DNA of 64,000 nt, from NCBI GenBank assembly GCA_034530615.2, contig JAVRCV020000015.1:32001-96000 (forward strand). Reading direction: 5' to 3'. The stretch's first letter is position 1. Every line of letters begins with the position of its first letter. Source of the DNA: Aulosira sp. ZfuVER01 (GTDB lineage: Bacteria > Cyanobacteriota > Cyanobacteriia > Cyanobacteriales > Nostocaceae). Below are positions 12,930-36,138 of the stretch, one piece after another. The translations under genes and the position numbers were made by a program. The notes under the pieces were generated by a model. It was given only the letters and a program-made list of their open reading frames with translations. It was not told where the DNA came from and made no database searches.

Positions 12930-12957
12930 CTAGCCATGAATTACGAACTACGAATTT

Positions 12958-15803: not shown

Positions 15804-15824
15804 GCAGCACCGCTCAACTTCTAA

Positions 15825-15962
15825 CTATTGGATGATATTGAAGTAATAGGCCGCAACTAAGAAGTTGATCGCTAACAACAACAATGCCCAACCAGTACGG
15901 AAGGGATAGGGAGGTTTAGCTCCACTGTCAGCAACCGGGGAATTTTTACTTTTAGCAGTCAT
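15825..15962 (-). CDS. psaX: Photosystem I subunit PsaX (not in the ORF track)
   Basis: Translates to MTAKSKNSPVADSGAKPPYPFRTGWALLLLAINFLVAAYYFNIIQ*. Confidence 0.95.
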   Translation of the reverse strand: MTAKSKNSPVADSGAKPPYPFRTGWALLLLAINFLVAAYYFNIIQ

Positions 15963-16050
15963 TAGGCTGTTCTCCTAAATTTCAGGACTTTTTAAGACAT
16001 ACCAAACAGGTGTACCGATTGCCCAAATTCTTTAAAAATATTTGTGTAGT

Positions 16051-16106
16051 TTGGGCATTGGGCATCGGGCATTGGGCATTGGGCATGGGGCATCGGGCAT
16101 TGGACA
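16051..16106. repeat. STRR heptamer tandem repeat (TTGGGCA)x8
   Basis: Eight 7-nt units with single-base variants. Confidence 0.9.
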
Positions 16107-16158
16107 AAAGTCATTAGTTATTTATGGTCTACTCCCCTTGTCCCTTTTCCTCTGCTGC

Positions 16159-17064
16159 TCACGTCTCTTCACCTGCATGGTAGGAACTGCGAACCAGAGG
16201 CCCGGAACGGACATGGCTGAATCCCATCTTCCATGCTACGCTGCCGAGTCGATCGAATTCCTCTGGAGTCCAGTATTTTTGAACTGGCAGATGTTCCAAA
16301 GACGGTCGCATATATTGACCAATGGTTAAGCGATCGCATCCGACTGCTCTTAAATCTGTCATTGTTTCAATGACTTCATCGCTGGTTTCTCCATGTCCTA
16401 GCATCAAACCTGATTTCGTGGGGATGGAAGAATCTATTTCTTTTACAATTGCAAGGACACGGAGCGAGCGATCGTACTTCGCTCCCCGGCGGACTGGCCC
16501 GGTTAAGCGTCGCACTGTCTCGATATTGTGGTTAAAACAAGCTGGCTTCGCCCTGACAATCATCGCTATCCGTTGGCGTTGACCTTCTTCCCCAGCCCCT
16601 ACACCGCCCCAAAAATCTGGTGTCAACACTTCAATTTGAGTTTCTGGGTTCAACTGACGGATAGTTTTCATTGTTTGGACAAAATGACCCGCACCTTGAT
16701 CTGCCAAGTCATCACGGGCGACAGAAGTCAAAACCACATAACGTAAACCCAAAAGCTGCACTGCTTCTGCCACCTTTTGCGGTTCTTCTAGGTCAACAGG
16801 CATTGGTGCATGGCCTTTATCTACTTGACAAAATGCACAAGAGCGTGTGCAAGTAGGCCCCATTAGTAAAAAAGTTGCTGTTTTTTGGGCATAGCATTCC
16901 CCCCGATTAGGGCAACGTCCTTCTTCGCAAATTGTATGGATTTGGCGCTGCTTAATAATGCGTTGTACGGTAGAGATTTCACTGGCTTTGCCGATAGAGC
17001 GACGTAACCAGCTAGGCATTGCCATAATTTCTGACTTGAGTTGGGCTTGTTGTGACGAAGTCAT
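16159..17064 (-). CDS. lipA: Lipoyl synthase
   Basis: [20 protein letters not shown] radical-SAM motif, C-terminal RSSYHA; start placed at MTSSQQ (ORF extends to 17085). Confidence 0.95.
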
Positions 17065-17964: not shown

Positions 17965-18513
17965 CTATCATTATTGATGTACACCCCTTTGGGGTACTCT
18001 GAACACCCTGATTACTAGTACTGAATAACCAATACGCGATCGCATCTGGATATATTTTGCCCGATTTCGCAAATATGTATGGTCGAGTGTACTGAAAAAG
18101 ATTAATAACCCCAACTGCTATGTCAAACAAAGCAGCTATAGAAAGACTAGCCCTGCCAAATTTTCTTCTAACAAGAGATAAAGGCAGGGTTTTTTATTGA
18201 GCAGAGCGATCGCGCCTGCTAGGCTGAAATACATTGAATCTGCATCATTACTTATCAAGGTTTTTCAGAGTCCAGAATAACTATTGAGGACTCTTGATCT
18301 TTGACTACCCTACACGAAAAATATCCAATTTAAAAGTTTGACAGCTTATTTTTTCAATTTTGATATTTTTAATTACAGTAATTATTTTAATTTATTGCGA
18401 AGTACAACATTAAAATATACAGAACAAACAAAACTAAAACTATTTAATGATAGTGCTAACTATGTCATGGGAATACTGAACCATAGAAATAAAATTTATA
18501 ATCGCAGGCTACA

Positions 18514-21500
18514 ATGTTAGTACTATCAGATACTGTATCTCCTATACTTGGTCATCGCATTACTGAGCAAATATATTCAGGTCAAAAAACCTTAGTTTAT
18601 CGGGCTATTAGAGAAAAAGACCAGCAATCAGTTATTTTAAAACTGATGCGCAATGAAGATCCTAACTTTGCTGAAATTAATCAGTTCCGCAATCAATACA
18701 CAATTACCCAAAATCTTGAAGTTCCGGGAATAGTCAAACTACTAAGCCTAGAAAATTACCATAATAGATATGCTATAGTCATGGAAGATTTTGGGGGGCT
18801 AGCCCTGAATCTCTGGCGCATAGAAGAGCAGCAACAGGGAAAAAATACTGTTTCATTAAGTCAGTTTTTTGATATTGCTATTGAAATTTCTACAACTTTG
18901 GAAGGCTTGCATCGCCATCGCATCATTCACAAAGATATCAAGCCTGCAAACATCCTCATTCATCCCATAACAGGTAAGACTAAAATTATTGATTTTAGCC
19001 TTGCTACTTTATTACCAAAAGAAATTCAATTTCTCACAAATCCTAACGTCTTAGAAGGGACTTTAGCTTATATTTCCCCTGAACAAACAGGACGGATGAA
19101 TCGAGGTATAGACTACCGTACCGACTTTTATTCTTTGGGTGTCACCTTTTTTGAACTCCTGACTGGGCAGTTACCTTTCTGTAGCACTGAACCTATGGAG
19201 TTAGTCTACTCTCACATTGCCAAAGAACCACCAAAAGCCAGCTTGATTAACTCCAATATTCCTACAATTGTATCTGATATTATCAGCAAACTGATGGCTA
19301 AAAATGCCGAAGACCGATATCAGAGCGCGCATGGACTCAGATATGATTTGGAAATATGCCGCAACCAATGGCAAGAGAAAGGAAATATTACGAGCTTTGA
19401 ATTAGCAAGCCGGGATATCTCCAACCATTTTGCTATTCCAGAAAAACTTTATGGTCGCCAACGAGAGATTGAAATTTTACTCACTACTTTTGATCGAGTG
19501 ACAAGCGGTAACACAGAAATGATCTTAGTCGCTGGTTACTCAGGAATTGGTAAAACTGCTGTGGTTAATGAAGTCCACAAACCTATTGCAAGACAGCGTA
19601 GTTACTTTATTAAAGGGAAATTCGACCAGTTCCAACGTGAGATACCATTGTCAGGATTGGTGCAAGCTTTGCGGGATTTAATTGGGCAACTACTCTCGGA
19701 AACAGATGCCCAAATTCAACAATGGAAAGCCAAAATTCTATTAGCATTGGGTACGCAATCCCAGGTAATTATTGATGTCATTCCTGAACTAGAAAGAATT
19801 ATTGGTCAACAACCTCCAGTTGCTGAATTAGCTAGTGGTGCTTCTCAAAATCGATTCAATTTATTGTTCCAGAGATTTATTCAGGTTTTTACTACTAAAG
19901 AGCATCCTCTGGTCATCTTTCTAGATGATTTGCAATGGGCAGATACAACTTCCTTAAAAGTTATTCAATTATTAATGAGTGGAACTTCTTCTCGTCTTAC
20001 TAATGAGACAGAGAATATATCTGAGAGTAAAGCGGCTCTGCTAATGATTGGGGCATATAGAGATAATGAGGTATTAAATTCACATCCATTACATTTGACA
20101 CTACAAGAACTTGCTAAAACCGGAGCAGTAATTAATACAATTAGGCTCTCCCCTTTGAGTCAGGTTGATTTAAATCATCTGATTGCTGATACACTGCATA
20201 GTCGAGAAGCTATCGCTGTGCCTCTGACTCAAATGGTTTTTGCCAAAACTAAAGGTAATCCCTTCTTTGCCGCTCAATTTCTCAAGTTATTATATGATGA
20301 CGAACTCATTAAATTAAATTTTGATGCTGGACATTGGCAGTACGATATTAACAAAATTAAAACATTATCTCTTACAGATGATGTAGTAGAATTTATAGGC
20401 ATTCAAATAGAAAAATTGCCCGAAAATACACAAAATGTATTAAAAATTTCTGCTTGTATTGGTAATGAGTTTGACTTAAAAACATTATCAATTGTTAATG
20501 AAAAATCTTTAATAGATACTGCCTCAGATTTATGGCAAGCATTAATTGAAGGGCTAATTGTACCTCAGAAAGATGGTTATAATCTGGTAGTAGAGGATGA
20601 TAGGCAATTATTAAGTCTTTCAAATCGAGAATCAGAAAATTTATCAATTACCAATTCCCAATTACCCAAATATAAATTTGTACATGACCGAGTTCAGCAA
20701 GCAGCTTATTCTCTAATTTCCCAAGAGCAAATAAAGCAAATACATTTAAGAATAGGACTACTTTTATTAAAAAATATCCCAGTTGCTGAACGAGGAGAAA
20801 AGATATTTGAGTTAGTGAATCAGTTGAATATTGCAGTTGAATTCATCAGCGATCGCCCTAAACTTGATGAGCTAGCCCAAATGAATTTGATTGCTGGGCG
20901 TAAAGCTTTGGTATCAACAGCTTATTCATCTGCGCTTAAGTATTTAACTACGGGAATTGAGCTACTAGCAGATGATAGTTGGGAGACAAATTATGAGCTA
21001 ACTCTAGCTTTGTATGAAATAGCAGTAGAAGCAGCATACTTAGCTGGTGACTTTGAGCAGATGGAGCAATTAGCAGATGTGGTATTAGTAAAAGCGAAAA
21101 CACTCTTAGAAAAAGTCAAAGTCTATGAAGTTAAAATTCAGGCTTATGGAGCGCAGAATCAAATAATAGAAGCAGTCAATATTGCACTAGTAGTTTTGAA
21201 ATTATTTGGAGTAGAGTTTCCAGAAAATCCCAATCAGTCAGATGTCCAGCTTGAAATGGAGAAAATAACTTTAAGTCTAGCTAATCGATGCGTTGGAGAC
21301 TTAATCAATCTACCAGAAATGGAAGATGTCAAAGTACTAGCAGTCATGCGTATTCTATCCAGTATCATTGTTTATGCTAGTCAAGCTTTTCCTGAGCTTT
21401 TTCCATTAATTGTTTTGAAACAAGTAAACTTATCGCTCGAATATGGTAATGCTTCCTTATCTGCTTTTAGTTATGTTGTTTATGGGTTATTCCTCTGTGG

Positions 21501-24132
21501 ATTATTAGAAGATATTGAATCTAGCTATCAATTTGGTAAATTAGCTGAAAGTCTTGTAACTAAGTTCCAAGATAAAAAAATTACGGCTAAAGTTATCCAA
21601 GCATTTAATGCTCATATTAAGCATGGAAAAGAGCATATCAAAGAACTAACAGAGCCTTTTTTAGAAGCTTACTCTGCCGGACTAGAAACTGGAGATTTAG
21701 AATTTGCAGTATATTCTATTAATGCCTATTGCTATGCTTCATTTTTTATGGGAAGAGAACTGACAACACTACAACAGGAAATGGCAGTATACAGTAATGC
21801 CATAAGCCATTTGAAGCAAGAAATGGTATTGCAATGGAATCAAATATATCACCAAACAGTGCTAAATTTGCTGAAAAATTTTGACAGTCCTTGCAATTTA
21901 ATTGGTGAAGCTTATGATGAAGTAACAAAACTACCTATTCACCTTACAGCTAATGATGGTATAGCACTTTTACGCTTATATATAAGCAAGCTTCATCTGT
22001 GTTATTTATTTGATAATTACAATGAAGCACTTGACAATGCAAAAAAGGCAGAAAAGTACTTATATGCTGGATTAGGATCTTTATTTATACCTCAATTTTA
22101 TTTTTACGATTCACTAGTAAGGCTGGCAGTATACCCTGATAGCACAGAGTCTGAACAGGAGGATATTCTACTCAAGGTAACAAGTAATCAGGAAAAAATG
22201 CGCCATTATGCAGATCATGCTCCGATGAATTACTTGCATAAATTTTATTTGGTAGAGGCTGAGACACATCGAATTAAAGGTGAATATCTCGAAGCAATAG
22301 AAGTTTACGATCGCCCTATTAGTCTTGCTAAAGAAAACGAGTACATTCATGAAGAAGCACTCGCTTATGAACTGGCTGGTAAGTTCTATCTCAAATGGGG
22401 TAAACAGAGAATTGCCCAACTCTACCTCACTGATGCTTATTATTGCTACGTTCGCTGGGGAGCATTAACCAAAGTTGATGACTTACAAAAACGCTATTCT
22501 CAATTACTGGTTCCCATCACTCAACCAGAAAAACTTAGCCATTCTTGCAGTGAAAAAAACCTACCTGAACTGAGCATACACCTATCTACACTCAGCAATA
22601 AATCTACTCGGGTTACGAATGAAACTGTGATTGGCTCCAACACCAGTATTTCCGATATGTTGGATTTAGCAACTGTTATTAAAGCTTCTCAAGTAGTCTC
22701 AGGAGAAATTGAACTAGAGGCGCTTCTTTCTACTTTAATGGAAGTTGTGATACAGAATGCAGGAGCTTCTAAATGTGTTTTGATATTGGGTGAAGTTAAT
22801 AACTTAGAATTAACTGTTACTGCAATTAGTTCTGGTTCCACTTTTGAAAGTACTCATACAGAATTTTTATCCATTCCCCTAGAATCAAGTAATATCGTTC
22901 CTATTTCTTTGATTAATTATGTCAAACGTACTCAAGAAATATTAGTAATTGATGACGTTAAAGCTCAAGCTTCTTTTACATTAGATACCTATATTACCCG
23001 TGAGGAACCAAAGAGCATATTATGTATCCCCATGCTGAATCAAGGTAAATTGCTAGGGCTGATTTATCTCGAAAATAATTTAACTACGGGAGCATTTACA
23101 CGCGATCGCCTAGAAGTACTTAAACTCTTAACTGCCCAAGCATCAATCTCTCTAGAAAATGCCATGCTCTACAAAAATTTGGCTAAAGCTAATGAGCGCT
23201 TGGAGGAATACAGCCATGTACTAGAGGAAAGAGTGGTAGTCAGAACAGCAGAAATTAATGAAAAAAATAAACATCTGCAAGCAGCACTAGAGGAATTACA
23301 AAGTACTCAAAGTCAATTAATCCAAAGTGAAAAAATGTCTTCTTTAGGGCAAATGGTAGCAGGAATTGCTCATGAAATTAATAACCCAATCAACTTTATT
23401 CATGGCAATATTGCCCACGCAAGTAACTATGTTCAAGACTTGCTAGATTTGATTAATATTTATCAGCAAGAATATCCCCATCCCTCGGCTTTAGTAGAGG
23501 AAAAAATTCAGGATATAGATGTAGAATTCCTGACAGAAGACCTACCAAGGGTTCTCGATTCTATGAAGCTGGGAAGTTCCCGTATCCGGAATATTATCCT
23601 GAGCTTACGTAACTTCTCTCGTCTAGATGAATCGGAAATGAAGCCTGTAAATATTCATGAGGGAATTGACAGTACCTTAATGATTTTGCAGCATCGACTC
23701 AAGGAAAAGAATGACCGTCCAGAAATTACAGTTATCAAAGAATACGCAAATCTGCCAAATATTAGTTGCTATGCTGGTCAACTCAACCAGGTGTTTATGA
23801 ATATCTTAAGTAATGCGATCGATGCTTTAGAGGAGTACAAGCATGAAGAAGATTCTCCAATTGAAAATCCTCAGATTCGCATTCGCACTGAACTAGGAGA
23901 AGCAAACACCCTGAAGATTCGGATTTCTGATAACGGTCATGGTATGACTGCACAGGTACAGCAGAAAATATTTGATCCATTTTTTACTACTAAGCCAGTA
24001 GGAAGCGGTACGGGGTTGGGTTTGTCAATTAGCTATCAAGTAGTGGTAGATAAACACAAAGGTCAGTTAAGCTGTGATTCAACTCCTGGAAAAGGGACTG
24101 AGTTTGTAATTGAAATTCCCATGCAACAGTGA
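18514..24132 (+). CDS. Multidomain Ser/Thr kinase-AAA ATPase-GAF-histidine kinase (HstK type)
   Basis: HKDIKPAN, GYSGIGKT, FLDDLQWAD, GAF, AHEINNP H-box, DPFFTTKPVGSGTGLGLSI. Confidence 0.92.
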   Translation: MLVLSDTVSPILGHRITEQIYSGQKTLVYRAIREKDQQSVILKLMRNEDPNFAEINQFRNQYTITQNLEVPGIVKLLSLENYHNRYAIVMEDFGGLALNLWRIEEQQQGKNTVSLSQFFDIAIEISTTLEGLHRHRIIHKDIKPANILIHPITGKTKIIDFSLATLLPKEIQFLTNPNVLEGTLAYISPEQTGRMNRGIDYRTDFYSLGVTFFELLTGQLPFCSTEPMELVYSHIAKEPPKASLINSNIPTIVSDIISKLMAKNAEDRYQSAHGLRYDLEICRNQWQEKGNITSFELASRDISNHFAIPEKLYGRQREIEILLTTFDRVTSGNTEMILVAGYSGIGKTAVVNEVHKPIARQRSYFIKGKFDQFQREIPLSGLVQALRDLIGQLLSETDAQIQQWKAKILLALGTQSQVIIDVIPELERIIGQQPPVAELASGASQNRFNLLFQRFIQVFTTKEHPLVIFLDDLQWADTTSLKVIQLLMSGTSSRLTNETENISESKAALLMIGAYRDNEVLNSHPLHLTLQELAKTGAVINTIRLSPLSQVDLNHLIADTLHSREAIAVPLTQMVFAKTKGNPFFAAQFLKLLYDDELIKLNFDAGHWQYDINKIKTLSLTDDVVEFIGIQIEKLPENTQNVLKISACIGNEFDLKTLSIVNEKSLIDTASDLWQALIEGLIVPQKDGYNLVVEDDRQLLSLSNRESENLSITNSQLPKYKFVHDRVQQAAYSLISQEQIKQIHLRIGLLLLKNIPVAERGEKIFELVNQLNIAVEFISDRPKLDELAQMNLIAGRKALVSTAYSSALKYLTTGIELLADDSWETNYELTLALYEIAVEAAYLAGDFEQMEQLADVVLVKAKTLLEKVKVYEVKIQAYGAQNQIIEAVNIALVVLKLFGVEFPENPNQSDVQLEMEKITLSLANRCVGDLINLPEMEDVKVLAVMRILSSIIVYASQAFPELFPLIVLKQVNLSLEYGNASLSAFSYVVYGLFLCGLLEDIESSYQFGKLAESLVTKFQDKKITAKVIQAFNAHIKHGKEHIKELTEPFLEAYSAGLETGDLEFAVYSINAYCYASFFMGRELTTLQQEMAVYSNAISHLKQEMVLQWNQIYHQTVLNLLKNFDSPCNLIGEAYDEVTKLPIHLTANDGIALLRLYISKLHLCYLFDNYNEALDNAKKAEKYLYAGLGSLFIPQFYFYDSLVRLAVYPDSTESEQEDILLKVTSNQEKMRHYADHAPMNYLHKFYLVEAETHRIKGEYLEAIEVYDRPISLAKENEYIHEEALAYELAGKFYLKWGKQRIAQLYLTDAYYCYVRWGALTKVDDLQKRYSQLLVPITQPEKLSHSCSEKNLPELSIHLSTLSNKSTRVTNETVIGSNTSISDMLDLATVIKASQVVSGEIELEALLSTLMEVVIQNAGASKCVLILGEVNNLELTVTAISSGSTFESTHTEFLSIPLESSNIVPISLINYVKRTQEILVIDDVKAQASFTLDTYITREEPKSILCIPMLNQGKLLGLIYLENNLTTGAFTRDRLEVLKLLTAQASISLENAMLYKNLAKANERLEEYSHVLEERVVVRTAEINEKNKHLQAALEELQSTQSQLIQSEKMSSLGQMVAGIAHEINNPINFIHGNIAHASNYVQDLLDLINIYQQEYPHPSALVEEKIQDIDVEFLTEDLPRVLDSMKLGSSRIRNIILSLRNFSRLDESEMKPVNIHEGIDSTLMILQHRLKEKNDRPEITVIKEYANLPNISCYAGQLNQVFMNILSNAIDALEEYKHEEDSPIENPQIRIRTELGEANTLKIRISDNGHGMTAQVQQKIFDPFFTTKPVGSGTGLGLSISYQVVVDKHKGQLSCDSTPGKGTEFVIEIPMQQ

Positions 24133-24141
24133 GATCACGAG

Positions 24142-24256
24142 TAGAATTATTGCAAAAATCGCAATAGGAAGAAAAGGAACCACAGATAAACGCCGATATT
24201 TATCTGTGTTTATCTGTGGTTTGATATCCAAAAAATCGACTTATGCAAGAGGTCTA
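24142..24256. mobile_element. MITE-like remnant
   Basis: Imperfect terminal inverted repeats TAGAATTATTGCAAAAATCG / CGACTTATGCAAGAGGTCTA around an AACCACAGATAAA…TTTATCTGTGGTT hairpin. Confidence 0.45.
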
Positions 24257-24337
24257 ATGACAAATGAAAAATGACTCTTTCCAGTCAGAGGGGGGGAATC
24301 AGAATTTCCTTTCGCCTCCCGCCCTCTGCCTTTTTTG

Positions 24338-25930
24338 CTAACAATGAGCTATTGCAAGTTTCTTTGTTGTATGCAAATTTTTGATATAGGCATAATGGGA
24401 AGGTAACTCACTTAATAGGTCTGCTGTTTTGATCTGTACAGAATTAAAAATCGTCTCTGCCTTTTCTAAGGAATGCTTTTTGTGATTTAAGATAGGCAAG
24501 ATTGCATCAGGTAAGTAATTCATTCCTGTTAAGATTGCCATGTAATTACTATTAGTCCAGAATCTGTCAAAGCCTGCATCAAAGACTTGGTTATATCCAA
24601 ACTCGTCTGTATAGGGAATATTAATCGGGGCCCCAGCCTTATAGACATTTAAGAGAGCCTGCAATGATTGAGGAATTTTGAGATCGAACTTATTCGCCTT
24701 CCAGAATGACGTGTCTTCTCTAGAGGTGGTGCAATAGTGCAAGACGATAAAATCTCTGACATCATCAATCATGTAAGCAATTCTTTCATTGAACTTGTCT
24801 CGCAAATTAGGACTCATGCTCTTGTCAGGGAAATACCTCAGCAATTGCTTCAAAGCTGCGTAAATAAAGTAGATTCCTGTTGACTCTAACGGTTCGATAA
24901 ACCCACTAGCAAGTCCTAAACTGACGCAGTTCTTGACCCAGGAACGCTCAGTTCTGCCTACTCTCATTTTGAGATGCTTAACTTCAATGTCTTTATCTTC
25001 AATCCCATGAAATGCTCTAAACTCTTGTTCAGCTGATTCTGGGGTTTGGAATTTTTGTGAGTAGACATAGCCTGTACCTAGTCGTTCATACAGCGGAATT
25101 TCCCATACCCACCCGGAACTGAGAGCTGTTGCTGTTGTGTAAGGTCTAAAGTTATCGTCGTTGTCGTTGGTCGGGATTGGCACCGCAACAGCGCGATCGC
25201 ATAGTAAACTCTCTGAATAGGATAAGAACGGCTCTTTTAGAGCTTCATTAATTAGCAGACCGCGAAAACCTGAACAGTCTAAATATAAATCTGCTGTGTA
25301 ACTATCGCCTTTTTGGGTTTTTAAAGAGCTAATGGCACCTGTATTGTCTAGAACTACATCGCTAACTTGATCGATGACACGCACAACTCCTCGTTCGATA
25401 GCCCATTTGGTCAAGAATTCAGCAACCATACTGGCATCAAAATGATATGCATAGTTGGCTCCTACACTTCCATCTAAGAATTTAGGAGATTTGTAATTTT
25501 CGCACAGTACTGAGCTAGGGTAACAGCAATCAGCCATCGAACGTTCATATCCATTTAGGCGTTTTTTCAGCCAGTAATGCGTTAACGGAACACCATCGCA
25601 TTCTTTAGATTCCCCAAAGATGTGATAGAACTTATTATTGTTATTGCTAAATGGTGCATAAGCCCAATTAACATACTTAATGCCTATCTTGAATGTCGCT
25701 TTACATTGTGGCATCCACTCTGATTCGGGAATTTCTAAAAAATCAAAGAAATCTGTGCGGATACTTGGTACAGTTGCTTCCCCTACACCAACTGTGGGAA
25801 TTCGATCCGACTCAATCAAAGTAATAGCAACACTTCCTTGCAGTGCTTTGATTAAATATGCGGCGGACATCCAACCAGTTGTACCACCACCGACAATAAG
25901 TATGCTTTGTATATTGTTAGCTGAATCCAT
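24338..25930 (-). CDS. Flavin-dependent halogenase, tryptophan-halogenase (PrnA/RebH/Thal) family
   Basis: GGGTTG, VGEATVP, ATFKIGIK (catalytic Lys region), YHIFG, WVWEIP (WxWxIP), FIEPLESTGI. Confidence 0.93.
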   Translation of the reverse strand: MDSANNIQSILIVGGGTTGWMSAAYLIKALQGSVAITLIESDRIPTVGVGEATVPSIRTDFFDFLEIPESEWMPQCKATFKIGIKYVNWAYAPFSNNNNKFYHIFGESKECDGVPLTHYWLKKRLNGYERSMADCCYPSSVLCENYKSPKFLDGSVGANYAYHFDASMVAEFLTKWAIERGVVRVIDQVSDVVLDNTGAISSLKTQKGDSYTADLYLDCSGFRGLLINEALKEPFLSYSESLLCDRAVAVPIPTNDNDDNFRPYTTATALSSGWVWEIPLYERLGTGYVYSQKFQTPESAEQEFRAFHGIEDKDIEVKHLKMRVGRTERSWVKNCVSLGLASGFIEPLESTGIYFIYAALKQLLRYFPDKSMSPNLRDKFNERIAYMIDDVRDFIVLHYCTTSREDTSFWKANKFDLKIPQSLQALLNVYKAGAPINIPYTDEFGYNQVFDAGFDRFWTNSNYMAILTGMNYLPDAILPILNHKKHSLEKAETIFNSVQIKTADLLSELPSHYAYIKNLHTTKKLAIAHC

Positions 25931-26116
25931 AAAGTTTCTCCTGCAATTCTAATTGTGAATTTTGACAGTTGAATTTTGCTCTCTTGCACTAAATGGCAGC
26001 AAGATAAGCGCTAGTGAGAGAATTTCAATGGTTGCAAAACTTTGAGGAGTCTAAAGAGAATTTAGGACTGGGAGATTGCTCCGACTCCTCCCAATACTAT
26101 TGATTTTCCCAAGCTT

Positions 26117-27667
26117 TTATCGGTAATCGGCAATGCCCACTTCTACGGTGTTACTTATCCAAGAATCATTTGCAGATAATGGCTTTTTAGCCTGTAATTC
26201 TTGCCGCAGGTTCTTGTAGGCTGAGGGACTCAATGGCATCATCATCTCTGCAAACGAACCAGTTTGGCGAAGTTTAGCACCCATGTCACGCATGAGATAG
26301 TCTAAATAGTGAAAACTAAAGGGGAAAAAGCACGTTCCACTATACAAACCTCTTGGCGTTTTAGTCAGTCTCCAGTCCAACTCTGCGTCTATATCCTTGA
26401 GCATCTCTGAGCGTGAAGGTAATTCTAAGTTGCCTTTGACATACTCAATTAGCCACCGAGAGCCAATCTCCGATGATAGAGTCCCAGAAAAAGTACTGTT
26501 GTAGCCAACAAAACCCATCTCAGGAACATCAGGGTGAATGAGATTGCGGTATAGATGAAAGATACCCTGGCGATCGATAATCTGCTGACGATACTGGTCT
26601 TGCAAAAAGGGGATATTCTGGTGGAATCCGGTTGCGAAGATAATTACATCGGCTGATAACTGCTCACCATTTGCCAATTCCACACCACCAGGGACAAACC
26701 TTTCTATGGTCGTCTTTTTAGCACGTATTTTGCCCTGACGCACATATTTATAGAAGTTTTTCGTAGCTATGCTTAAGGGACAGTTGATAAATCCTTCGAT
26801 TGGTTCGTCAGGTAACATCCCACAAGCATCTAAACGTAACTGTAGGCGTAGTAGCATCTCCAAAGTTCGCCAAAAAGCCCAGACTAAAGGCTTACCTACT
26901 GTATGCAACACCTTCTCTACTCCACGAAGTCTGCGGTATGGAAACCAGACTTGCCCCAAGCGCGTTAACATCAAATATTTGATGTTGATGAATCCGAGAA
27001 AGTATCGAGGAATTTTCCAAGACGCTTGACGGAAAACAAGCGTACATTCAGAAGCTTTATCAACCGCGAAAGTTGCTATGTCAGCCGCCGATTTTGCAAA
27101 ACCAACAACGACGACCCGTTTACCTTGGATGAGAGAATCATCATTAATATCAGTGGAATGCAACACCAATCCTCCAGAGTTGATAAACTCTGCCATACCA
27201 GGAAAAGCAAGCACTTTTGGAATGTTGCAAGTACCATTGCAGACAAGAATAAAGTCTAATTCATGTTTTTCCTGGCTTGTTGTTCCTTGAGGGTGATTCT
27301 TGTAGCTGACGCTAACAACCCATCCTGATTTTTTCGCGGTGTTCCTTTCGACTTGAGTCACTTCTGCTTGGAAGCGAATCTTCTCTGCAATGCCAAAGTG
27401 TTGTGCGTAGGACTCTAGGTAATTCCGCACCTGCTCGCCTGTGGGAGCTTCTGGATAGAATGCAGGCATGGGATAATCGGAAAAAGCATACATATCACGA
27501 GGGCTTTGGGTGGTTACTCCTGGATAACTTCTCGACTTTTCCCATACACCGCCAAGTCCTTTCTGTTTCTCGAATACTGTTACTTCGTAACCTTCTTCAA
27601 GAAAAGTTTTAGCTGCGACTAAACCGCTGAGACCAGCGCCAATAACGCCAATACGTTGAATATTCAT
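26117..27667 (-). CDS. Class B flavin-containing monooxygenase (FMO-like)
   Basis: GAGLSG FAD motif, GGVW, F..SGG.VLHST FMO fingerprint, VVGFAKSAADIA NADPH motif, FATGF. Confidence 0.9.
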   Translation of the reverse strand: MNIQRIGVIGAGLSGLVAAKTFLEEGYEVTVFEKQKGLGGVWEKSRSYPGVTTQSPRDMYAFSDYPMPAFYPEAPTGEQVRNYLESYAQHFGIAEKIRFQAEVTQVERNTAKKSGWVVSVSYKNHPQGTTSQEKHELDFILVCNGTCNIPKVLAFPGMAEFINSGGLVLHSTDINDDSLIQGKRVVVVGFAKSAADIATFAVDKASECTLVFRQASWKIPRYFLGFINIKYLMLTRLGQVWFPYRRLRGVEKVLHTVGKPLVWAFWRTLEMLLRLQLRLDACGMLPDEPIEGFINCPLSIATKNFYKYVRQGKIRAKKTTIERFVPGGVELANGEQLSADVIIFATGFHQNIPFLQDQYRQQIIDRQGIFHLYRNLIHPDVPEMGFVGYNSTFSGTLSSEIGSRWLIEYVKGNLELPSRSEMLKDIDAELDWRLTKTPRGLYSGTCFFPFSFHYLDYLMRDMGAKLRQTGSFAEMMMPLSPSAYKNLRQELQAKKPLSANDSWISNTVEVGIADYR

Positions 27668-27699
27668 GTTCTCAATGCGTAAGTCTATATTGTCTTGAT

Positions 27700-28413
27700 T
27701 TAGGCAACTTTTAATGGTTGCTCAATCTGGTAGGTTTTGGCATAAACCAACAGCTCATTTGTCAATTTTGTAAAAACTGTAAATAAGTTTTCGACTAATT
27801 CAAAAGCTTCTTGCCTGTTCACTTCTGATAGTTGTATATCTTGTATAAATTGCTCTATACCAGATGAACCTGTCATGTGTCCCGTTTCAACATCTAAATG
27901 GAAATCTGCAAAATATCTGCATGGTTTTTGAGTAATTACTTTAATTTCTTTACCAATCTCTGCTGCTATTGAAAACATAACATTACCTGTTGATTCTATA
28001 ACTTCAATGACTATCAACTTCTGAATAGGAGTAGCCTGCGAAGTATATTTATACAGTTGATAGTTTAACCAGCGATTATTTTTAGTTTCTTCACCCCAAA
28101 GAAATTTTAATGCATCACTAAATTTCAGCGATTTGTCAAGTTCTAAGTTCTTTATGTCTTCCAAAAACCACAGCCAATGGTGATCGTCTTCATAAGTATG
28201 CTTGTTAATTAGTATTTGCAGAGGCTCGCTAGTTGGTTCTACTCGTAAAAAATATTTGTTCAGTTCTCCAAAATTCATAATGAAATGAGCAGCGCATGGT
28301 GCCCAAGCCAGCCTTTGTTTGGGATCTATGCTTTGGTCTTGCATAAATTTAAATAATGGCAACTGAGCAAATTCCTGCTTTTTGTGTTGAATTAATGCTA
28401 GGACTTCTTTCAT
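27700..28413 (-). CDS. Heme-oxygenase-like diiron enzyme, AetD (nitrile synthase)-like
   Basis: 237 aa from ATG at 28413; HTYEDDHHW, IEVIE and ADFHLDVETGH motifs are collinear with AetD as recalled. Confidence 0.8.
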   Translation of the reverse strand: MKEVLALIQHKKQEFAQLPLFKFMQDQSIDPKQRLAWAPCAAHFIMNFGELNKYFLRVEPTSEPLQILINKHTYEDDHHWLWFLEDIKNLELDKSLKFSDALKFLWGEETKNNRWLNYQLYKYTSQATPIQKLIVIEVIESTGNVMFSIAAEIGKEIKVITQKPCRYFADFHLDVETGHMTGSSGIEQFIQDIQLSEVNRQEAFELVENLFTVFTKLTNELLVYAKTYQIEQPLKVA

Positions 28414-28458
28414 GATTATTACACCAAATTTCAAAAGTTAATTATGTGAGAAAAACTG

Positions 28459-28481
28459 ACTTTTACAAACATTGTAAAAGT
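28459..28481. promoter_or_regulatory. Inverted repeat ACTTTTACAA-N3-TTGTAAAAGT, candidate operator
   Basis: Perfect 10-bp arms, ~45 bp upstream of the AetD-like start codon. Confidence 0.5.
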
Positions 28482-28565
28482 ATTGAATGCAGAGATTTCA
28501 TCACCAATCAGTAAATACCTGTTAGTGTTTTAGATACTTTAGATGACAATGCCAGCATTTTTTAA

Positions 28566-28591
28566 TTATTGAATTAATATTAATTCAATAA
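28566..28591. promoter_or_regulatory. 26-bp perfect palindrome TTATTGAATTAATATTAATTCAATAA
   Basis: Exact self-reverse-complement in the operon upstream region. Confidence 0.5.
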
Positions 28592-30053
28592 AATATAGCT
28601 GAATACACAGTTTCTAAGATTGCTTGATAGTACATTAGATGAGACACTCTTAGTTGGCATTACAAAACAGTGGCGATGAAAAAAATATCGTCTTGAATGT
28701 AAAATATTTCTCAATCTAAACCACTATAATTTAACAACCCTATACCCTTTTAAGTCAGCATATTGCAACGCAACTATCGCCAGCCTAAAGACTGTAGTGC
28801 GGAAACGCCAAGAGCATCAATTTCTCAGGAATAAGAGATTAATTTTCTCGTAGTTTTAAGTTAAGCATTCACTCTAGAGAATGCTCTTCCAGAACTTCAA
28901 CATACCTAATTTATCAGCCTAAAAATACTTAAAGCGAGCCTGATGGATTTAATTTGCCCAATCCAACCATCTCACTAAGGCGGGGAGTTACTTAAAAATC
29001 TATTTTCCCCTTACTTCTTTTTCTCCTACAAAGAAAGGCTGATTAATAGAGCTTGATTACACTGAAAGTGCTTAAATTATAGTCTCTAACTTTAATTCAT
29101 CTATAATCACTGAACAAATTCAAGTGATTATAAAAATTTGAATTACAGGAATATAGAACCCATTGTCCTGTAAATAGTCAGCCACAAAAAGATTTGTACA
29201 GCGTGTAAATAATATTTACTGCCACCGTGGTTTGCGTTTAAAGCTATAATTTGATGTTTGCAACACTTTATGTGTGCAACCATTGTTTAATTTTTTATTA
29301 AAAAAAATATCCGTAATTACCCGTAATTACTAAAAATAGTTAGTTCTATAAAAGACATTGCAATAAATTATACAAATTTGTTGTCAGACTGGATATCTTT
29401 TAACCTTTAGGCTTGAAAGTATTGTATATATTTGTTCATATCAAGCTAATATAACGAATTATGCTTAAATTAACTCAGTATTATGTATTATAAATAACAT
29501 TTTTATTAAAATTAGCTTACTAATTGATAATTAATTATAAAATCTACTAATCTAAAACAGTTATTTATATTACTTATCTAATTAAGTCTTATTACGTAAT
29601 TGTTAGGATTTTCTGACATAAGTAATTTAGTACACAGGCGAAATTCAGCGCGGCTTGTGGTAAAAATCACTCATCCAATGTTAAAAGAGGTTCAGTTTGT
29701 ACATAGCTGTTCAAACATACCAGGGCAAGAAAAGCAAAATATCTATTAAATTGCAGATGCATAAATTAACTATCTCTCAAAGGTAATATATTAAACTAGT
29801 AAGCAAATATTATCTTAATATCAATCAAATATATATCTATTATAGGATGACAAACAAGCAAACTTAGTATAAATAAAAACAGTCATAATAAATAATGATG
29901 AATTTCAAAGCGATCGCCTTGAAATTCCTAGACTAGACGGTTGTAACTTAATCAGCATGATGATACCAATGCCGGGATAATGGGCAAACTAAATATGCAA
30001 GAAATTTACTCCATCTTTGCAAAGCAGCTCAAAAGCAAAAATTATGACAATCC

Positions 30054-30168
30054 CATCAAATTATTGTAGAAAAATATGGTGGATGGAACGCTGAAAGTAA
30101 ATTTATCAATATGGTATGGTTCCGAAGTTAGAATTCCTATTACTATTCAGCAACCAGCCATTGAATAA
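30054..30168 (+). pseudogene. Decayed histidine-kinase HATPase C-terminal remnant
   Basis: HQIIVEKYGG / 4-nt TGGA duplication / TLKVNLSIWYGSEVRIPITIQQP aligns by eye with HQIIVEKHEGSIEVNSIPGAGAEFVITLPI of the 33244 kinase. Confidence 0.6.
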
Positions 30169-30400
30169 ATATAAATTTTTCACTAAATATACGTGGATTA
30201 ATTTTTATTACTTAAGTGTAATTCTCTTTGAATTTATAGTGTTTTTTTATCACAAATATAGTTCCGATCAAACATATATTGATTTTAATTCAACATATTT
30301 TCTTCATATTTTACTTTTAAAGCAAAGTTTTAAAAGTAATTTCTTATCAAGAGATACTACCTTCTTATTTGCTAAAGATAAACTATTGTTTTTAATTTAT

Positions 30401-33232
30401 ATGAATAAAAAACAAATAAAAATAAAATTCTCGCTATTTACGACCAATTCAAATTTTAAAAAGCATTACAAAGTATCATTCAGGCTGATTCTGATTCTTC
30501 CCTTCATTATCCAGATATTTGCTGCTGTGGGACTAGTGGGCTATCTTTCTTGGAGAAATGGGGAGAGGGCAGTTAACGATCTAGCTAATCAGTTAATGAA
30601 AAAAGTAAATAGGCTTGTCGTTCAGCACCTTGATACATATTTAGCAACTCCTCCACAGATTAATCAGATTAATAGCGATGCCATTAAGCTACAGCTAATA
30701 GATATAAATAATCTGCAAAGTACAGGAAACTATTTTTGGAAGCAAATGCAGGTGCTGAATATTGGCTACATTAATTTTGCTAATCCCAAAGGCGAATTTA
30801 TTGGTATCGAACGTTTAGATAATGGGAATCTTTTAATTAATGAAGTTTCCAAAAAGCGTAAAATTGGTAAACTGTATGTTTATACTACAAACACTCACGG
30901 AAATCGTCAAAACCTTACAGCAGTTAAAGATTACGATCCTCGCCTAGAAGCTTGGTATGCGGATGCAGTCAAGATAGGTAAACCTTTATGGACTCCAATT
31001 TATCAATGGGAAGATAAACCAGAAATTTTTTCTATCTCTTCCAGTTTTCCAATTTATGATGAAGAGCGTAAGCCTATTGGTGTAATTGGTATTGATTTAA
31101 TTTTGTCACAAATTAGTAATTTTTTAGCAAATTTAAAAGTAGGTCAAAAAGGTAAAATATTTATTTTAGAGCGTTCTGGTTTAATAGTAGCTGCTTCTAA
31201 TAATGAGTTACCGTACAATATTATTAATGGCAAAGCTAAAAGGCTATCAGCATTAAACAGTAAAGATGGTGTAATTCAAGCAACAGCGCAATATTTAGAA
31301 CAAAAATTTAGCAGTTTTAAAGAAATTAAAGATAGTCTAGAACTTGATTTTACCCTAAAAGGCGAACGGCAATTTGTCCAAGTTATCCCTTGGCAAGACA
31401 AACTTGGGCTAGATTGGTTAGTCATTGTTGTGATGCCAGAATCTGATTTTATGGCACAAATTGATGCCAATACTCGCAGCAGTATACTCTTGTGTCTAGC
31501 AGCATTAGGAGTAGCGACTTTAGTAGGAATGGTCACATCTCGTTGGATTACAAAACCCATTCTACGCTTGCAGGCTGCAAGTATGGCGATCGCTTCCGGA
31601 AAACTAGATCAAAAAGTTGAAATTAAAGGTATAGATGAACTAGAAAGTCTGGCACAATCTTTTAACCAAATGGCTGCACAGTTGCAAGCATCTTTCCTAG
31701 AACTAGAAACCAGAGTAGATGAACGTACTATCGAGTTAAAAACAGCAAAAGAAATTGCTGATAGTGCCAACACAGCTAAAAGTGAATTTTTGGCTAACAT
31801 GAGCCACGAACTGCGCACACCACTCAACGGTATCCTCGGATATGCTCAAATACTTGAGCTTGACCAAAACTTGAGTGCCAAACAAAAGAACGCTATCAAC
31901 ATTATTTACCAATGTGGTTCCCATTTACTGACCCTGATCAACGATATTCTCGATCTATCAAAAATTGAAGCTCGGAAACTAGAATTATCTGCTCACGATT
32001 TCCACTTTACTAGTTTTCTAAAAAGTATTTTTGAAATCTGCCGCATCAAATCTGAGCAAAAAGAAATTGCTTTTACTTACCAAGAACTGAATCAACTTCC
32101 CACTGCTGTATTAGCTGATGAAAAACGTTTGCGCCAAGTGCTGCTGAACTTATTAAGTAACGCAATTAAATTTACAGATTGCGGTGAAGTCAGATTCAAA
32201 ATAGGTGTGTTGGATAATACGCTCAATTTTGATGATTCTTTAACTCAGGTAACAGAGGAGGCTGTAGGTAATAGGCAAAAAGAAGAATTACCTATAATGA
32301 AAATTAGATTTCAAATTGAGGATACAGGCGTTGGCATGAGTCCAGAGCAATTACAAAAGATATTTCTACCCTTTGAACAGGTGGGAAGTAAGCAGCGAAT
32401 GGCAGAGGGAACTGGACTCGGACTCGCTATCAGCCAGCAAATTGTGCAAATGATGGGCAGTGAAATCAAAGTAGAAAGTACTTTGAGCCAAGGTAGCAAG
32501 TTTTGGTTCGATGTGGATTTACAAGGATCACAGCAATGGGTTAATTCAACTTCTAGTAAGCCTACTCATAAAATTGTTGGCTATGAAGGGAATTCAATCA
32601 AGGTTCTGGTTGTTGATGACCGTTGGGAAAATCGCTCTGTAATTGTTAATCTGTTAGAACCCCTAGGTTTTCTACTCATGGAAGCAGTTAACGGACAAGA
32701 AGGATTAGAAAAAGCCCTTGCTTGGCACCCGGAGTTAATTATCACTGACATAGTTATGCCTATACTCAATAGTTGGGAGATGGTACAAAATTTGCGTTCC
32801 CAACCACAATTTTCAAAACTTATTATTATTGCTTCTTCTGCCAATGTATTTAACTTTGACCAACAACAAAGTTATAATTTTTGCTGCAATGATTTTCTTC
32901 CCAAGCCTGTGCAATCAGAGCAACTATTAGCCCAGATTCAAATGCATTTAGGCCTAACTTGGATTTATCAAGCAGATAGTGCAACTGTCCCAGCACTAGC
33001 AGCAGAGAATGCTGTTAGTAATATTGATTGCGAGTTCATGGTTCCTCCTCAAGAGGAATTACAAAATATATGGACTGCCGCCACTATTGGCGATATTGCA
33101 GCAGTTGAACAGGAAGCGCAAAGATTACAGCAGTTAGATATTAAATATCTAGGCTTTACCGCCAAGCTTTTAGAACTCACTCAAAATCTAGATGAAGAAG
33201 CCATTCTTAAGTTAGTGAAAAAATATATTTGA
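30401..33232 (+). CDS. Membrane hybrid histidine kinase (dCache-like sensor, HAMP, HisKA, HATPase, REC)
   Basis: Two TMs flanking a periplasmic YDPRLEAWY Cache motif, [17 protein letters not shown] and REC; start moved from 30116 to ATG 30401. Confidence 0.9.
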
Positions 33233-33243
33233 AAACCTTAAAT

Positions 33244-34533
33244 ATGGTTAATGATAAACAAAGTCTCATCATGATTGTTGAGGATAACCCAACAAATGCC
33301 AAGCTACTATTTGAATTTTTACAAATATCAGGTTTTCGCGTTTTAGTTGCAAAAAGTGGCGAGAGTGCTTTAGAAAAATTACAAGTAGTATCTCCTGACC
33401 TCATATTATTAGATATTATGATGCCGGGAATTGATGGATTTGAAACTTGCCGTCGCTTAAAAGCAGAAAAAGCTACCCAAGACATCCCAATTATTTTTAT
33501 GACGGCTCTATCAGATGTGGTAGATAAAGTAAAAGGTCTAACTCTTGGTGCAGTAGATTACATTACTAAGCCATTTCAGCCAGAAGATATACTTGCTCGA
33601 GTTAATGTTCATCTAAAGCTGTGTCACCTCAACCAAAAGTTAGAACAACGAGCAGTAGAACTCACTACTACTGTGGAGCAGCTACAACAGTCTCAGCGGC
33701 GGTTAGTGCAGAGTGAAAAAATGTCTTCTTTGGGACAAATGGTAGCAGGAATTGCTCATGAAATTAATAACCCTGCTGGCTTTGTTAAAGGTAATCTCGG
33801 TTATGCTCATAAATATATACAAGACCTGATCGATCATATTTATCTGTATCAAAATCAAGCTTCAGCAGCAGAAATCGCTCAACATGCAACAAAAATTGAT
33901 TTGGAATATCTCCTGAAAGACTTTCCGCATATCCTCACTTCAATGCATGAAGGAGTAGAGAGGATCTGCGATATTAGTACTTCTCTACGTACCTTTGCCC
34001 GTGCTGATAACACGGTGAAAATTCCTTTTAATATTCATGATGGTATCGATAGTACTATTTTAATTCTCAAGCATAGATTGAAAGCTTCTAATACTCGCCC
34101 AGCTATTGAAGTTATCCGAGATTACGATAATTTACCAGAAGTAGAATGCTTTCCTGGACAATTAAATCAGGTATTTATGAATCTCTTGGCTAATGCTATT
34201 GATGCTTTAGAGGAATCTAATATAGGGCGTAGCTATCAAGAAATAGCAGCTAATCCCAATTACATTATCATTCAAACTAAGTTAACTGAAGATCAAAATC
34301 ATGTATTAATTATTATTAAAGATAATGGATTGGGTATCCCAGATGCCATAAAATCCCAAATATTTGATAACTTATTTACAACTAAAGCTGTAGGAAAAGG
34401 TACAGGGTTGGGGTTATCAATTACTCATCAAATCATAGTAGAGAAGCATGAGGGCAGTATAGAGGTCAATTCGATACCAGGTGCAGGTGCAGAATTTGTG
34501 ATTACTCTCCCTATAGATTCTAAATTCAGGTAA
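33244..34533 (+). CDS. Response regulator-histidine kinase hybrid (REC + HisKA + HATPase)
   Basis: IMIVEDN…LLDIMMPG…TKPF, AHEINNP, TTKAVGKGTGLGLSI; ORF extends to TTG 33229. Confidence 0.9.
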   Translation: MVNDKQSLIMIVEDNPTNAKLLFEFLQISGFRVLVAKSGESALEKLQVVSPDLILLDIMMPGIDGFETCRRLKAEKATQDIPIIFMTALSDVVDKVKGLTLGAVDYITKPFQPEDILARVNVHLKLCHLNQKLEQRAVELTTTVEQLQQSQRRLVQSEKMSSLGQMVAGIAHEINNPAGFVKGNLGYAHKYIQDLIDHIYLYQNQASAAEIAQHATKIDLEYLLKDFPHILTSMHEGVERICDISTSLRTFARADNTVKIPFNIHDGIDSTILILKHRLKASNTRPAIEVIRDYDNLPEVECFPGQLNQVFMNLLANAIDALEESNIGRSYQEIAANPNYIIIQTKLTEDQNHVLIIIKDNGLGIPDAIKSQIFDNLFTTKAVGKGTGLGLSITHQIIVEKHEGSIEVNSIPGAGAEFVITLPIDSKFR

Positions 34534-34566
34534 TAGGTAATTGAAAATAGCAATTACCTATTACCT
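34528..34566. terminator. Bidirectional terminator between convergent genes
   Basis: Perfect 16-bp stem AGGTAATAGGTAATTG / CAATTACCTATTACCT. Confidence 0.8.
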
Positions 34567-34575
34567 AAGAGTAAT

Positions 34576-36138
34576 TTACAATCCGTCTGGATGTTCGGTA
34601 TTCACAACACTTGCCTGAGTACTAACAACTTTAGTTGCTTGCAATATAGCAGTATTTGCAACTGAATTATTAGCTAAGGTAAACAGGGGATTTGACAAAA
34701 TCCCGGCAATAGAAGTGGCGATTAAAGTTACTATCAACCCCACCTGCAAAGGTCTAAAGCCAGGTAAATTCCAACTGATTGCGGGATAGTTCTTCACAAC
34801 GTCAGACATTTCTTGGGGTTCTTTTACCACCATCATCTTAACTACGCGAATGTAGTAGTAGATGGAGACAACGCTGGTAACTAAGCCTAACAAGACTAAC
34901 CAGTAAAGACCTGCTTGCCAACCTGCCCAGAACAAGTAAATTTTGCCAAAAAACCCAGCTAGTGGCGGAATACCACCTAAAGACAGAAGGGAGATACTCA
35001 AGCCTAATGTCAGAAGTGGGTCTTTTTGATACAAACCAGAGTATTCGGCAATCTGGTCGGTTCCGGTTCTTAGGGAGAACAGAATGATGCAGGTAAAGCC
35101 GCACAAGTTCATGAACAAATAGACCAGTAAGTAAAAAATCATACTGGCATATCCGGCTTCAGTATCAGCAATCAAGCCAATCATCACAAACCCAGCTTGG
35201 GCAATGGATGAATAAGCTAGCATTCGTTTCATGCTGGTTTGTGCTAGGGCAACTACGTTACCCAACACCATACTGAGAACTGCAAGGGCAGTGAAGACGA
35301 ATTTCCATTCCTCGGCAACTAAGGGGAAGACTGTGGTTAGTAAGCGGATAGCTAGGGCAAAACCTGCTGCTTTGGAACCTACAGATAAAAAGGCAATCAC
35401 TGGGGTGGGAGCGCCTTCGTAAACGTCGGGAGTCCATTGGTGGAAGGGTGCAGCAGAAATTTTGAAGCCAATCCCGGCAATCACAAACACCAGAGCAATC
35501 ACTATACCTAATGATTGACCAATATGAGCTGCGGCAATGCCATTAGCGATCGCACTTAGTTCTGTTTGTCCACCCGATAAGCCGTACAGCAGCGACACGC
35601 CATATAAAAATACTGCTGTGCTGGAAGCTCCAATCAACAGATATTTCAGTGCTGCTTCATTAGAGCGTGGGTCACGCTTGGTATAACCTGTTAACAAATA
35701 AGAGGAAATACTCAGGGTTTCTAGGGAGATGAAAATCATCACTAACTCGCTAGCCCCGGATAAAAACATTCCTCCTAGGGTAGCAGTTAACAAAATCGCG
35801 ATGAACTCGGCTAAAGCAGTGCCACTCTGCTCCACGTAGCGAATGGACATCAAGATGGTGACAGCAGCAGACAAGGCAATGATACCGCGAAAGATGATAC
35901 TGAGGTCATCACCATTAAAGCCACCACTAAAGGAGATGGGATTGGTAGCATCCCATTGAAAATACAGGGCGACAATCGCAGCAAGTAAACCTGCGATCGC
36001 TAGATACCCAATCCAGCGTGAAGATGTACGCCCTAAAATCAAATCAACAATCAAAACCCCCAAGAGGGTGAGAATGACAATCCCCTCTGGCAAAATTGTT
36101 CCAGCATTTAACTGGGATGCAAGATTAGCAAAATCCAT
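34576..36138 (-). CDS. ndhB: NAD(P)H-quinone oxidoreductase subunit 2 (NdhB/NuoN)
   Basis: [55 protein letters not shown]. Confidence 0.97.

Follow-up and report, generated by a model that had tools for sequence, protein, structure and literature searches.

Introduction

The locus described here is a cluster of three genes, encoding a heme-oxygenase-like diiron oxidase (HDO), a flavin-containing monooxygenase (FMO) and a flavin-dependent tryptophan halogenase, in a 64,000-nucleotide stretch of Aulosira sp. ZfuVER01 (Nostocaceae; assembly GCA_034530615.2, contig JAVRCV020000015.1, positions 32,001–96,000), which is called the window below. Its closest described counterpart is the skt biosynthetic gene cluster (BGC) of Nostoc punctiforme NIES-2108, which encodes SktA, SktB and SktC (Adak et al., JACS 2025; PMC11869266). 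SktA, a homologue of AetD, comes from the largest group in the similarity network of those authors, which has 138 sequences; AetD itself grouped with no other sequence there, and the two proteins are approximately 39% identical (PMC11869266). SktB is a tryptophan 5-halogenase, which forms 5-bromotryptophan, prefers bromide and is active without a reductase (PMC11869266). SktA converts 5-bromotryptophan, and also tryptophan, to (bromo)skatole, cyanide and bicarbonate, with neither a nitrile nor an aldehyde among its products, and it co-purifies with skatole (PMC11869266). SktC was insoluble and was proposed to carry out a C2-C3 epoxidation toward a bromoanaindolone-like 3-hydroxy-3-methyl-oxindole (PMC11869266). 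The cyanobacterial metabolite bromoanaindolone is the 6-bromo isomer according to the cited part of PMC2953405, and this pattern is not explained by the 5-brominating SktB.

In our study, the window cluster was found to contain the same three enzyme types as skt and no further biosynthetic genes, with an orthologue of SktA encoded by the first gene. The halogenase is not orthologous to SktB, and the order of the genes is rearranged: the diiron gene is followed by the FMO and then by the halogenase, whereas in skt it is followed by the halogenase and then by the FMO. An earlier note on this DNA did not recognise the gene combination as a described one; however, the skt BGC is a characterised cluster that matches it. 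The trio is already published and is no new class of pathway. What is new, as judged from gene comparison, is the natural replacement of the halogenase of a skt cluster by a non-orthologous one, together with the rearranged order. No paper on a halogenase of the PrnA branch in a skt cluster was found in the literature searched, and the supplement of PMC11869266 may list such variants.

Gene identities and boundaries

All three genes are located on the minus strand and were found to be intact. The sktA-like gene (27700–28413) encodes an HDO of 237 amino acids. In the list of open reading frames (ORFs) of the window, the third ORF extends from 27700 to 28434 with a TTG start and 244 amino acids; the ATG at 28413 gives 237 amino acids, which is the length of most homologues, and the in-frame TTG at 28434 adds seven residues. 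No Pfam or NCBIfam family matched this protein, and the solved AetD matched it over the full length and without gaps (E 1.2e-53). The gene is followed, after a spacer of 32 bp (27668–27699), by the sktC-like FMO gene (26117–27667; 516 amino acids; PF00743, E 5.5e-48). After a second spacer of 186 bp, read from the sequence at 25931–26116, comes the gene of the flavin-dependent tryptophan halogenase of the PrnA branch, called Hal' here (24338–25930; 530 amino acids; PF04820, E 5e-162). The earlier note had given the shared orientation, the gaps of 32 and 186 bp and the identities (an AetD-family diiron enzyme, a classical FMO and a flavin-dependent tryptophan halogenase), all of which agree with the ORF coordinates, the Pfam matches and the AetD alignment.

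The Pfam scan covered 39 ORFs of the 64-kb window (6 + 33). No cytochrome P450, tryptophanase or AetF-like gene was found among them, and nonribosomal peptide synthetase and polyketide synthase genes were absent, so that the description of a pathway free of such synthases and unlike that of aetokthonotoxin was upheld. The window cluster resembles the aetokthonotoxin (aet) cluster (AetD, AetA, AetF, AetE, AetB) in that the product of its first gene is homologous to AetD over the full length and retains all six metal ligands; a start from halogenated tryptophan would also be common to both. It differs from aet in the absence of an AetF-type single-component halogenase, an AetE tryptophanase and an AetB P450, in the approximately 39% identity of the diiron enzyme to AetD, and in the chemistry of the branch: SktA-branch enzymes give skatole and cyanide, whereas AetD gives a nitrile.

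Three sequencing runs, which may be of the source sample, contained single contigs of 9558, 9557 and 6819 nucleotides that span 24208–29000 with no differences, and only these three runs hold the whole stretch. An error of a single assembler does not explain the arrangement. In a run of another study (X4), low-depth (2–5) pieces of the halogenase and FMO genes with 95–97% identity were found within 24575–27670. No contig of this run bridges the halogenase and FMO pieces, and a loose end is present at 27670, with sequence upstream of the FMO that is unlike the window. Run X4 may represent a related strain with a different arrangement, and its data are too sparse for an interpretation.

The diiron enzyme

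The window diiron protein was 83% identical to SktA (L010, the record of N. punctiforme NIES-2108), 90% identical to its homologue in Nostoc sp. T09 (L001) and 89% identical to that in Nostoc sp. 106C (L002). Its identity to AetD was approximately 39% (90 of 232 columns, counted by hand on the alignment). On these values the first gene is orthologous to SktA, and no second AetD/SktA homologue was found in a search of its own genome (8.03 Mb, 99.99% complete). In AetD, the first iron is bound by H79, H172 and E176 and the second by D76, E140, E176 and H179, according to the cited part of PMC10654658. The columns of D76, H79, E140, H172, E176 and H179 were all conserved in the window protein (6/6), with the same numbering as in AetD and with three histidines and three carboxylates. 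Its orthology to SktA predicts that the enzyme forms skatole and cyanide.

A 2026 review sets M139, A142 and S214 of AetD against T139, T142 and F214 of SktA and, in the part cited here, reads F214 as filling the space of a C7-halogen (PMC13108848). The window protein contains I139, T142 and F214. The F214 residue was invariant in the window protein and 84 other rows of the family (85/85). As a marker of the halogen position it was rejected, since it does not discriminate between partner types.

The halogenase and the FMO

The best solved relative of Hal' was PrnA, the tryptophan 7-halogenase of pyrrolnitrin biosynthesis (PDB 2AQJ and others), with an E value of 1.6e-182 and 611 bits, followed by AbeH, PyrH, SttH and Th-Hal with 405–416 bits (AbeH 413). 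The best solved relatives of SktB were the 5-halogenase AbeH (616 bits), then SttH and PyrH, and PrnA scored 481 bits. Hal' and SktB were 45% identical (245/545). In a maximum-likelihood tree of 23 halogenases they were placed in separate clades, of eight and six rows respectively, each with a support of 100/100. When the genome was searched with SktB, Hal' alone was matched; it is the sole tryptophan halogenase, and the genome yielded no gene of the SktB type.

The PrnA residues K79, E346, H101, F103, Y443, F454, W455 and N459 were conserved in Hal'. The K81 and E349 residues of Hal' align to the catalytic pair K79 and E346 of PrnA, and H101, F103 and W455 are the indole-stacking residues. 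In all eight rows of the clade, Y444 was substituted by N and E450 by G. Hal' also has the flavin-binding N-terminus of PrnA/RebH-type halogenases, and its translation contained GGGTTG and WVWEIP, which we take to be motifs of this type. The cyanobacterial clade is unlike PrnA in these two substitutions and also in its partners, which are enzymes of the AetD/SktA family and not prnBCD. In PrnA, the residues Y443, Y444, E450 and F454 hold the amino-acid end of tryptophan (cited part of PMC5659210).

The PrnA-branch clade argues for halogenation at C7 or C6, and F214 of the diiron enzyme argues against C7. Owing to this evidence, and to the changed PrnA residues, the position of halogenation could not be read from similarity. 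If C5 were the position, the cluster would be functionally equal to the canonical skt cluster.

The window FMO shared 89% identity with its L002 counterpart, 86% with the L025 one and 58% with SktC (NIES-2108). It shares with SktC the Pfam family, the length (516 vs. 517 amino acids) and the neighbourhood, yet it belongs to a separate deep lineage. A comparison of 43 FMO sequences revealed three deep lineages, and the window FMO was located in the small third one, together with those of L002 and L025, which stands at 57–63% identity from the NIES-2108 type and from the second type.

Synteny of the cluster with relatives

Relatives of the window diiron gene were collected with one genome per species; 206 relatives were found and 80 loci were kept. 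The window cluster is located between ndhB and a large gene with Ser/Thr-kinase, AAA, GAF and His-kinase domains, as are the clusters of L001, L002, L035 and L040 (Nostoc sp. NIES-4103). L001 and L002 contain a canonical skt cluster at this place. In a blastn alignment, the window was colinear with L002 across the whole neighbourhood. The ndhB and response-regulator/kinase side aligned with 90% identity, the diiron gene with its 1.7-kb upstream region with 79%, and the FMO and the large kinase gene with 88% each.

The 32-bp spacer between the diiron gene and the FMO is the position of sktB in relatives and leaves no room for it. The sktB gene was cleanly absent: window position 27695 corresponds to L002 position 7707 and window position 27688 to L002 position 9609, so that approximately 1.9 kb of L002, including sktB, is missing from the window. 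On the other side of the FMO, a 2-kb segment on the minus strand (24134–26141), which carries the halogenase, replaces a short-chain dehydrogenase/reductase (SDR) gene of the nearest relative. Homology to L002 stops at 24130 in the kinase gene and restarts at 26141 in the FMO, and between these points L002 contains an SDR of 254 amino acids (11204–11968). By blastn, the halogenase loci of other genomes share homology with the window from approximately 25978 onward, inside the 186-bp spacer. No remnants of sktB or of a former sister diiron gene were found in 25931–26116 or 27668–27699 by blastn against L109, L104, L108 and L002. As read from these alignments, the genome, relative to its closest sequenced relative, is without sktB and bears, 3' of the FMO, a halogenase whose partners in other genomes belong to a sister branch of the same diiron family. 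The locus looks like a hybrid of a skt cluster and the sister two-gene cluster.

Distribution of the partner genes in the family

Homologues of Hal' with at least 66% identity were searched in 389 genomes of the same family, and eight other genomes were found to carry one. In four of these eight (L104, L105, L108 and L109), the halogenase directly follows a gene of a sister AetD/SktA branch. These pairs are like the window cluster in that their halogenases belong to the same clade (66–80%) and that those of L109 and L104 lie at the same ndhB-to-kinase locus. They are unlike it in that the sister diiron gene is approximately 50% identical to that of the window and no FMO is present. In L105 (G328, 15121–15893) the sister diiron gene was broken into two ORFs, with a stop in the read-through and three ligand columns lost. 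The literature searched gave no paper on these pairs of other Nostocaceae.

The closest relatives of Hal' (80%) were found in L101 and L102 (G144 and G204; ~4900–15200), where DAHP synthase, a TrpE/G fusion, indole-3-glycerol phosphate synthase, a bifunctional FAD synthetase, an ABM monooxygenase and a methyltransferase are the neighbours; the cluster looks like a tryptophan-supply BGC. In L103 (Calothrix sp. NIES-4105, 7702–16638), genes for a glycosyltransferase, the PrnA-branch halogenase (79%), an amino-acid oxidase, a VioE-like protein, a 721-amino-acid protein without a Pfam match and a 416-amino-acid ORF were present. This cluster, which may be of an indolocarbazole or tjipanazole-like type, lies approximately 330 kb from a locus of the same genome (L041) that contains a diiron gene, a Pyr_redox_3 flavoprotein and an FMO. 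Tjp10 has been proposed to make 5-chlorotryptophan (cited part of PMC7497240). No Fischerella protein occurred among the 120 best homologues listed, and a link between Tjp10 and the halogenase clade was not made. In the eighth genome, G169 (L110), the halogenase gene was split.

An FMO beside the PrnA-branch halogenase was found in none of the eight other genomes (0/8). The order of diiron gene, FMO and halogenase was absent from all 80 loci, from the eight other genomes with this halogenase type and from every metagenome match, and was seen in this genome alone. The metagenome scan with the halogenase gave three loci, two of which were genomes already counted and one a 2.7-kb fragment; the arrangement did not recur in any of them.

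The AetD/SktA family is widely distributed among the genomes of this cyanobacterial family, with a match in 244 of 389. A flavoenzyme gene follows the diiron gene in 77 of the 80 loci, and the relatives at the locus showed at least five other partner arrangements. A SktB-type halogenase was the next gene in 35 loci, with the order diiron gene, halogenase, FMO, and three of these also contained an SDR. A CmlS/PltA-like FADH2-dependent halogenase (best PDB match E 8e-52), which is not of the tryptophan-halogenase type, was next in 27 loci, mostly of Microcoleus (within L042–L070, ~8001–10900), and L043 contained a second copy of the diiron gene after it. In 14 loci (L035–L039, L041, L044, L065, L072–L074 and L077–L079) the next gene encoded a Pyr_redox_3 flavoprotein of approximately 530 amino acids, followed by an FMO in seven of them. 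This partner was considered as an AetF-like halogenase and rejected, since its solved relatives were only of the FMO and Baeyer-Villiger monooxygenase type and AetF was not matched. An FMO follows directly in one locus (Nostoc sp. NIES-4103) and nothing recognisable in three.

An arrangement with two halogenases was observed in L108 (G121, contig C1377, 1–7014). There, the sister AetD/SktA gene is truncated at the beginning of the contig, and two tandem tryptophan halogenases come after it, one of the PrnA branch (80% to that of the window) and one of the SktB type (73.5% to SktB). An ORF of 119 amino acids, a FAD_binding_4 oxidase and a Methyltransf_33 (EgtD-like) gene are located downstream. 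Such a pair is reminiscent of the dihalogenation in aetokthonotoxin biosynthesis.

Proposed pathway and alternative explanations

The locus is probably a natural variant of the skt pathway, in which Hal' acts on tryptophan, the SktA orthologue forms halo-skatole and the FMO oxidises it. We infer the chemical steps, the co-transcription of the genes and the site of halogenation from gene content and homology. Hal' (24338–25930) would put chloride or bromide on free L-tryptophan. The SktA orthologue (27700–28413) would cleave the C-alpha/C-beta bond of halotryptophan or tryptophan to give (halo-)skatole, cyanide and CO2/bicarbonate. The FMO (26117–27667) would then oxidise the skatole, for which Adak et al. 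proposed a C2-C3 epoxidation leading to a 3-hydroxy-3-methyl-oxindole. The most likely product would be a halogenated skatole-derived oxindole. Several observations speak for this pathway: the published function of the skt trio, the 83% identity of the diiron enzyme to SktA with all six ligand positions kept, the chromosomal place shared with relatives, and the catalytic and indole-stacking residues conserved in Hal'. In addition, the sole tryptophan halogenase and the sole AetD/SktA-family gene of the genome lie together in the cluster, and in four of the eight other genomes a halogenase of this clade comes immediately after a gene of the AetD/SktA family.

Other observations weigh against it. 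The F214 residue, present here and in the 84 other rows, argues against 7-halotryptophan as a substrate, although PrnA is a 7-halogenase. Among the four PrnA residues that bind tryptophan at its amino-acid end, Y443 and F454 are kept in the clade, while Y444 has become N and E450 has become G, so that the pose of tryptophan, or the substrate itself, may differ. PrnA-type enzymes normally require a flavin reductase. No flavin reductase was found in the cluster; SktB, by contrast, is active without one (PMC11869266). With SktC, itself an enzyme of proposed function, the FMO shares only 58% identity. A weak promoter-like site was present in the 186-bp spacer (26028–26001, minus strand; a 9/12 consensus match, which is not evidence of function), and the halogenase may accordingly be transcribed on its own. 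The runs holding the stretch were searched, and none is on record as RNA.

The promoter-like site would also fit an explanation to which we give a low probability, namely that the halogenase is an unrelated insertion beside a two-gene skatole pathway. The SktA-like enzyme and the FMO would then act on plain tryptophan, and the halogenase would have its own promoter and another product, or none. Such a two-gene pathway has a counterpart in Nostoc sp. NIES-4103 (L040), where the FMO directly follows the diiron gene with no halogenase within the locus and the pair presumably uses plain tryptophan; SktA itself accepts tryptophan and co-purifies with skatole (PMC11869266). The segment with the halogenase is a discrete replacement of the SDR gene, and the closest relatives of the halogenase (80%) belong to other tryptophan-related clusters (L101, L102 and L103). 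However, the three genes are adjacent and on the same strand, and no terminator-like site was found in either spacer, the sole one inside the cluster being a weak 5-pair stem in the halogenase coding sequence (25243–25231). The direct succession of diiron gene and halogenase in half of the eight other genomes tells against an unrelated insertion, and so does the fact that this is the only tryptophan halogenase of the genome, with nearest relatives that all pair the diiron gene with a halogenase.

Slightly less probable still is a late halogenation, in which the SktA-like enzyme makes skatole from plain tryptophan, the FMO oxidises it and the halogenase acts on skatole or the oxindole. The gene order (diiron gene, FMO, halogenase) would match this sequence of reactions, but gene order is weak evidence for reaction order. 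The loss of Y444 and E450 in the whole clade, the invariant F214, read as leaving no room for a C7-halogen (cited part of PMC13108848), and a SktA substrate that needs no halogen (PMC11869266) are consistent with it. Against it, halogenases of the same clade are accompanied by tryptophan-supply genes (L101) or by an amino-acid oxidase and a VioE-like gene (L103), where free tryptophan is the expected substrate, and every solved member of the branch among the matches listed was deposited as a free-tryptophan halogenase.

The product suggested in the earlier note, a halogenated indole-3-carbonitrile or an aldoxime or N-oxidised indole formed through the FMO by AetD-like chemistry, is very unlikely. 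The homology to AetD (E 1.2e-53) and the identical metal ligands would allow it. The diiron enzyme is, however, 83% identical to SktA, compared with approximately 39% to AetD, and it shares T142 and F214 with SktA, the corresponding AetD residues being A142 and S214. SktA yielded no nitrile or aldehyde, and AetD stood alone in the similarity network (PMC11869266).

Within the preferred reading, that of a skt-pathway variant, a further idea can be put forward tentatively and is rather doubtful. A SktA skatole synthase may have been re-paired with a halogenase of another branch, from the sister two-gene cluster that occupies the same site elsewhere in Nostocaceae, and the product would hence be a regioisomer of the 5-halo compound, e.g., a 6- or 7-halo-3-hydroxy-3-methyl-oxindole. 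If this is true, variants such as this locus could be the missing route to the 6-bromo pattern of bromoanaindolone. The locus gives a test of the tolerance of SktA to the halogen position, of the regiochemistry of the cyanobacterial PrnA-branch halogenases, and of whether differently halogenated skatole-derived oxindoles, e.g., bromoanaindolone, stem from such variants. The advance is modest but usable.

Other features of the region

Promoters and terminators were scanned by consensus matching only. Promoter-like hexamers (TTGTAA, 16 nucleotides, CATAAT) were found on the minus strand at 28441–28468, 27 bp upstream of the ATG of the sktA-like gene. The region contained 12 promoter-like sites, which is fewer than in shuffled sequences (mean 20.8). 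The sktA-like gene is preceded by a non-coding AT-rich region of 1.7 kb (28414–30115) with a GC content of 0.28–0.34, and window positions 27695–30049 aligned with 79–80% identity to L001 and L002. An Rfam scan of 24000–30200 gave only two matches, both at chance level (E 0.8 and 0.9).

A terminator-like hairpin of 11 pairs with a T-rich tail is located 3' of the halogenase (24181–24208, minus strand), within a short hairpin-forming repeat (CACAGATAAA...TTTATCTGTG) at approximately 24178–24222, between the convergent halogenase and kinase genes. The contigs of the three runs end in this repeat and its summed depth is 4–7 times that of the flanks; the repeat is therefore dispersed in the genome.

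The HIP1 motif (GCGATCGC) was found at 81 sites in the window, as compared with 0.45 expected from shuffles. A single site was present in the cluster (25193–25200), as the earlier note had counted by eye for the approximately 4 kb. The mean of 1.27 sites per kb gives 5.2 expected sites in 4.1 kb (Poisson P(≤1) ~0.035). A HIP1-poor stretch of 17 kb (18214–35545; GC content 0.28–0.44) contained five sites, where approximately 22 were expected from the window mean. The paucity was considered as a sign of horizontal transfer and rejected: the cluster is not marked as foreign by HIP1, since neighbouring genes with conserved synteny in relatives lie in the poor stretch as well.

Upstream of the AT-rich region, the window contained an intact gene (30116–33232) for a hybrid histidine kinase of 1038 amino acids with dCache, HAMP, HisKA, HATPase and receiver domains. 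In Nostoc sp. T09 and Nostoc sp. 106C, only short remnants of this kinase were found to align, at window positions 31535–31730 and 32642–32752.

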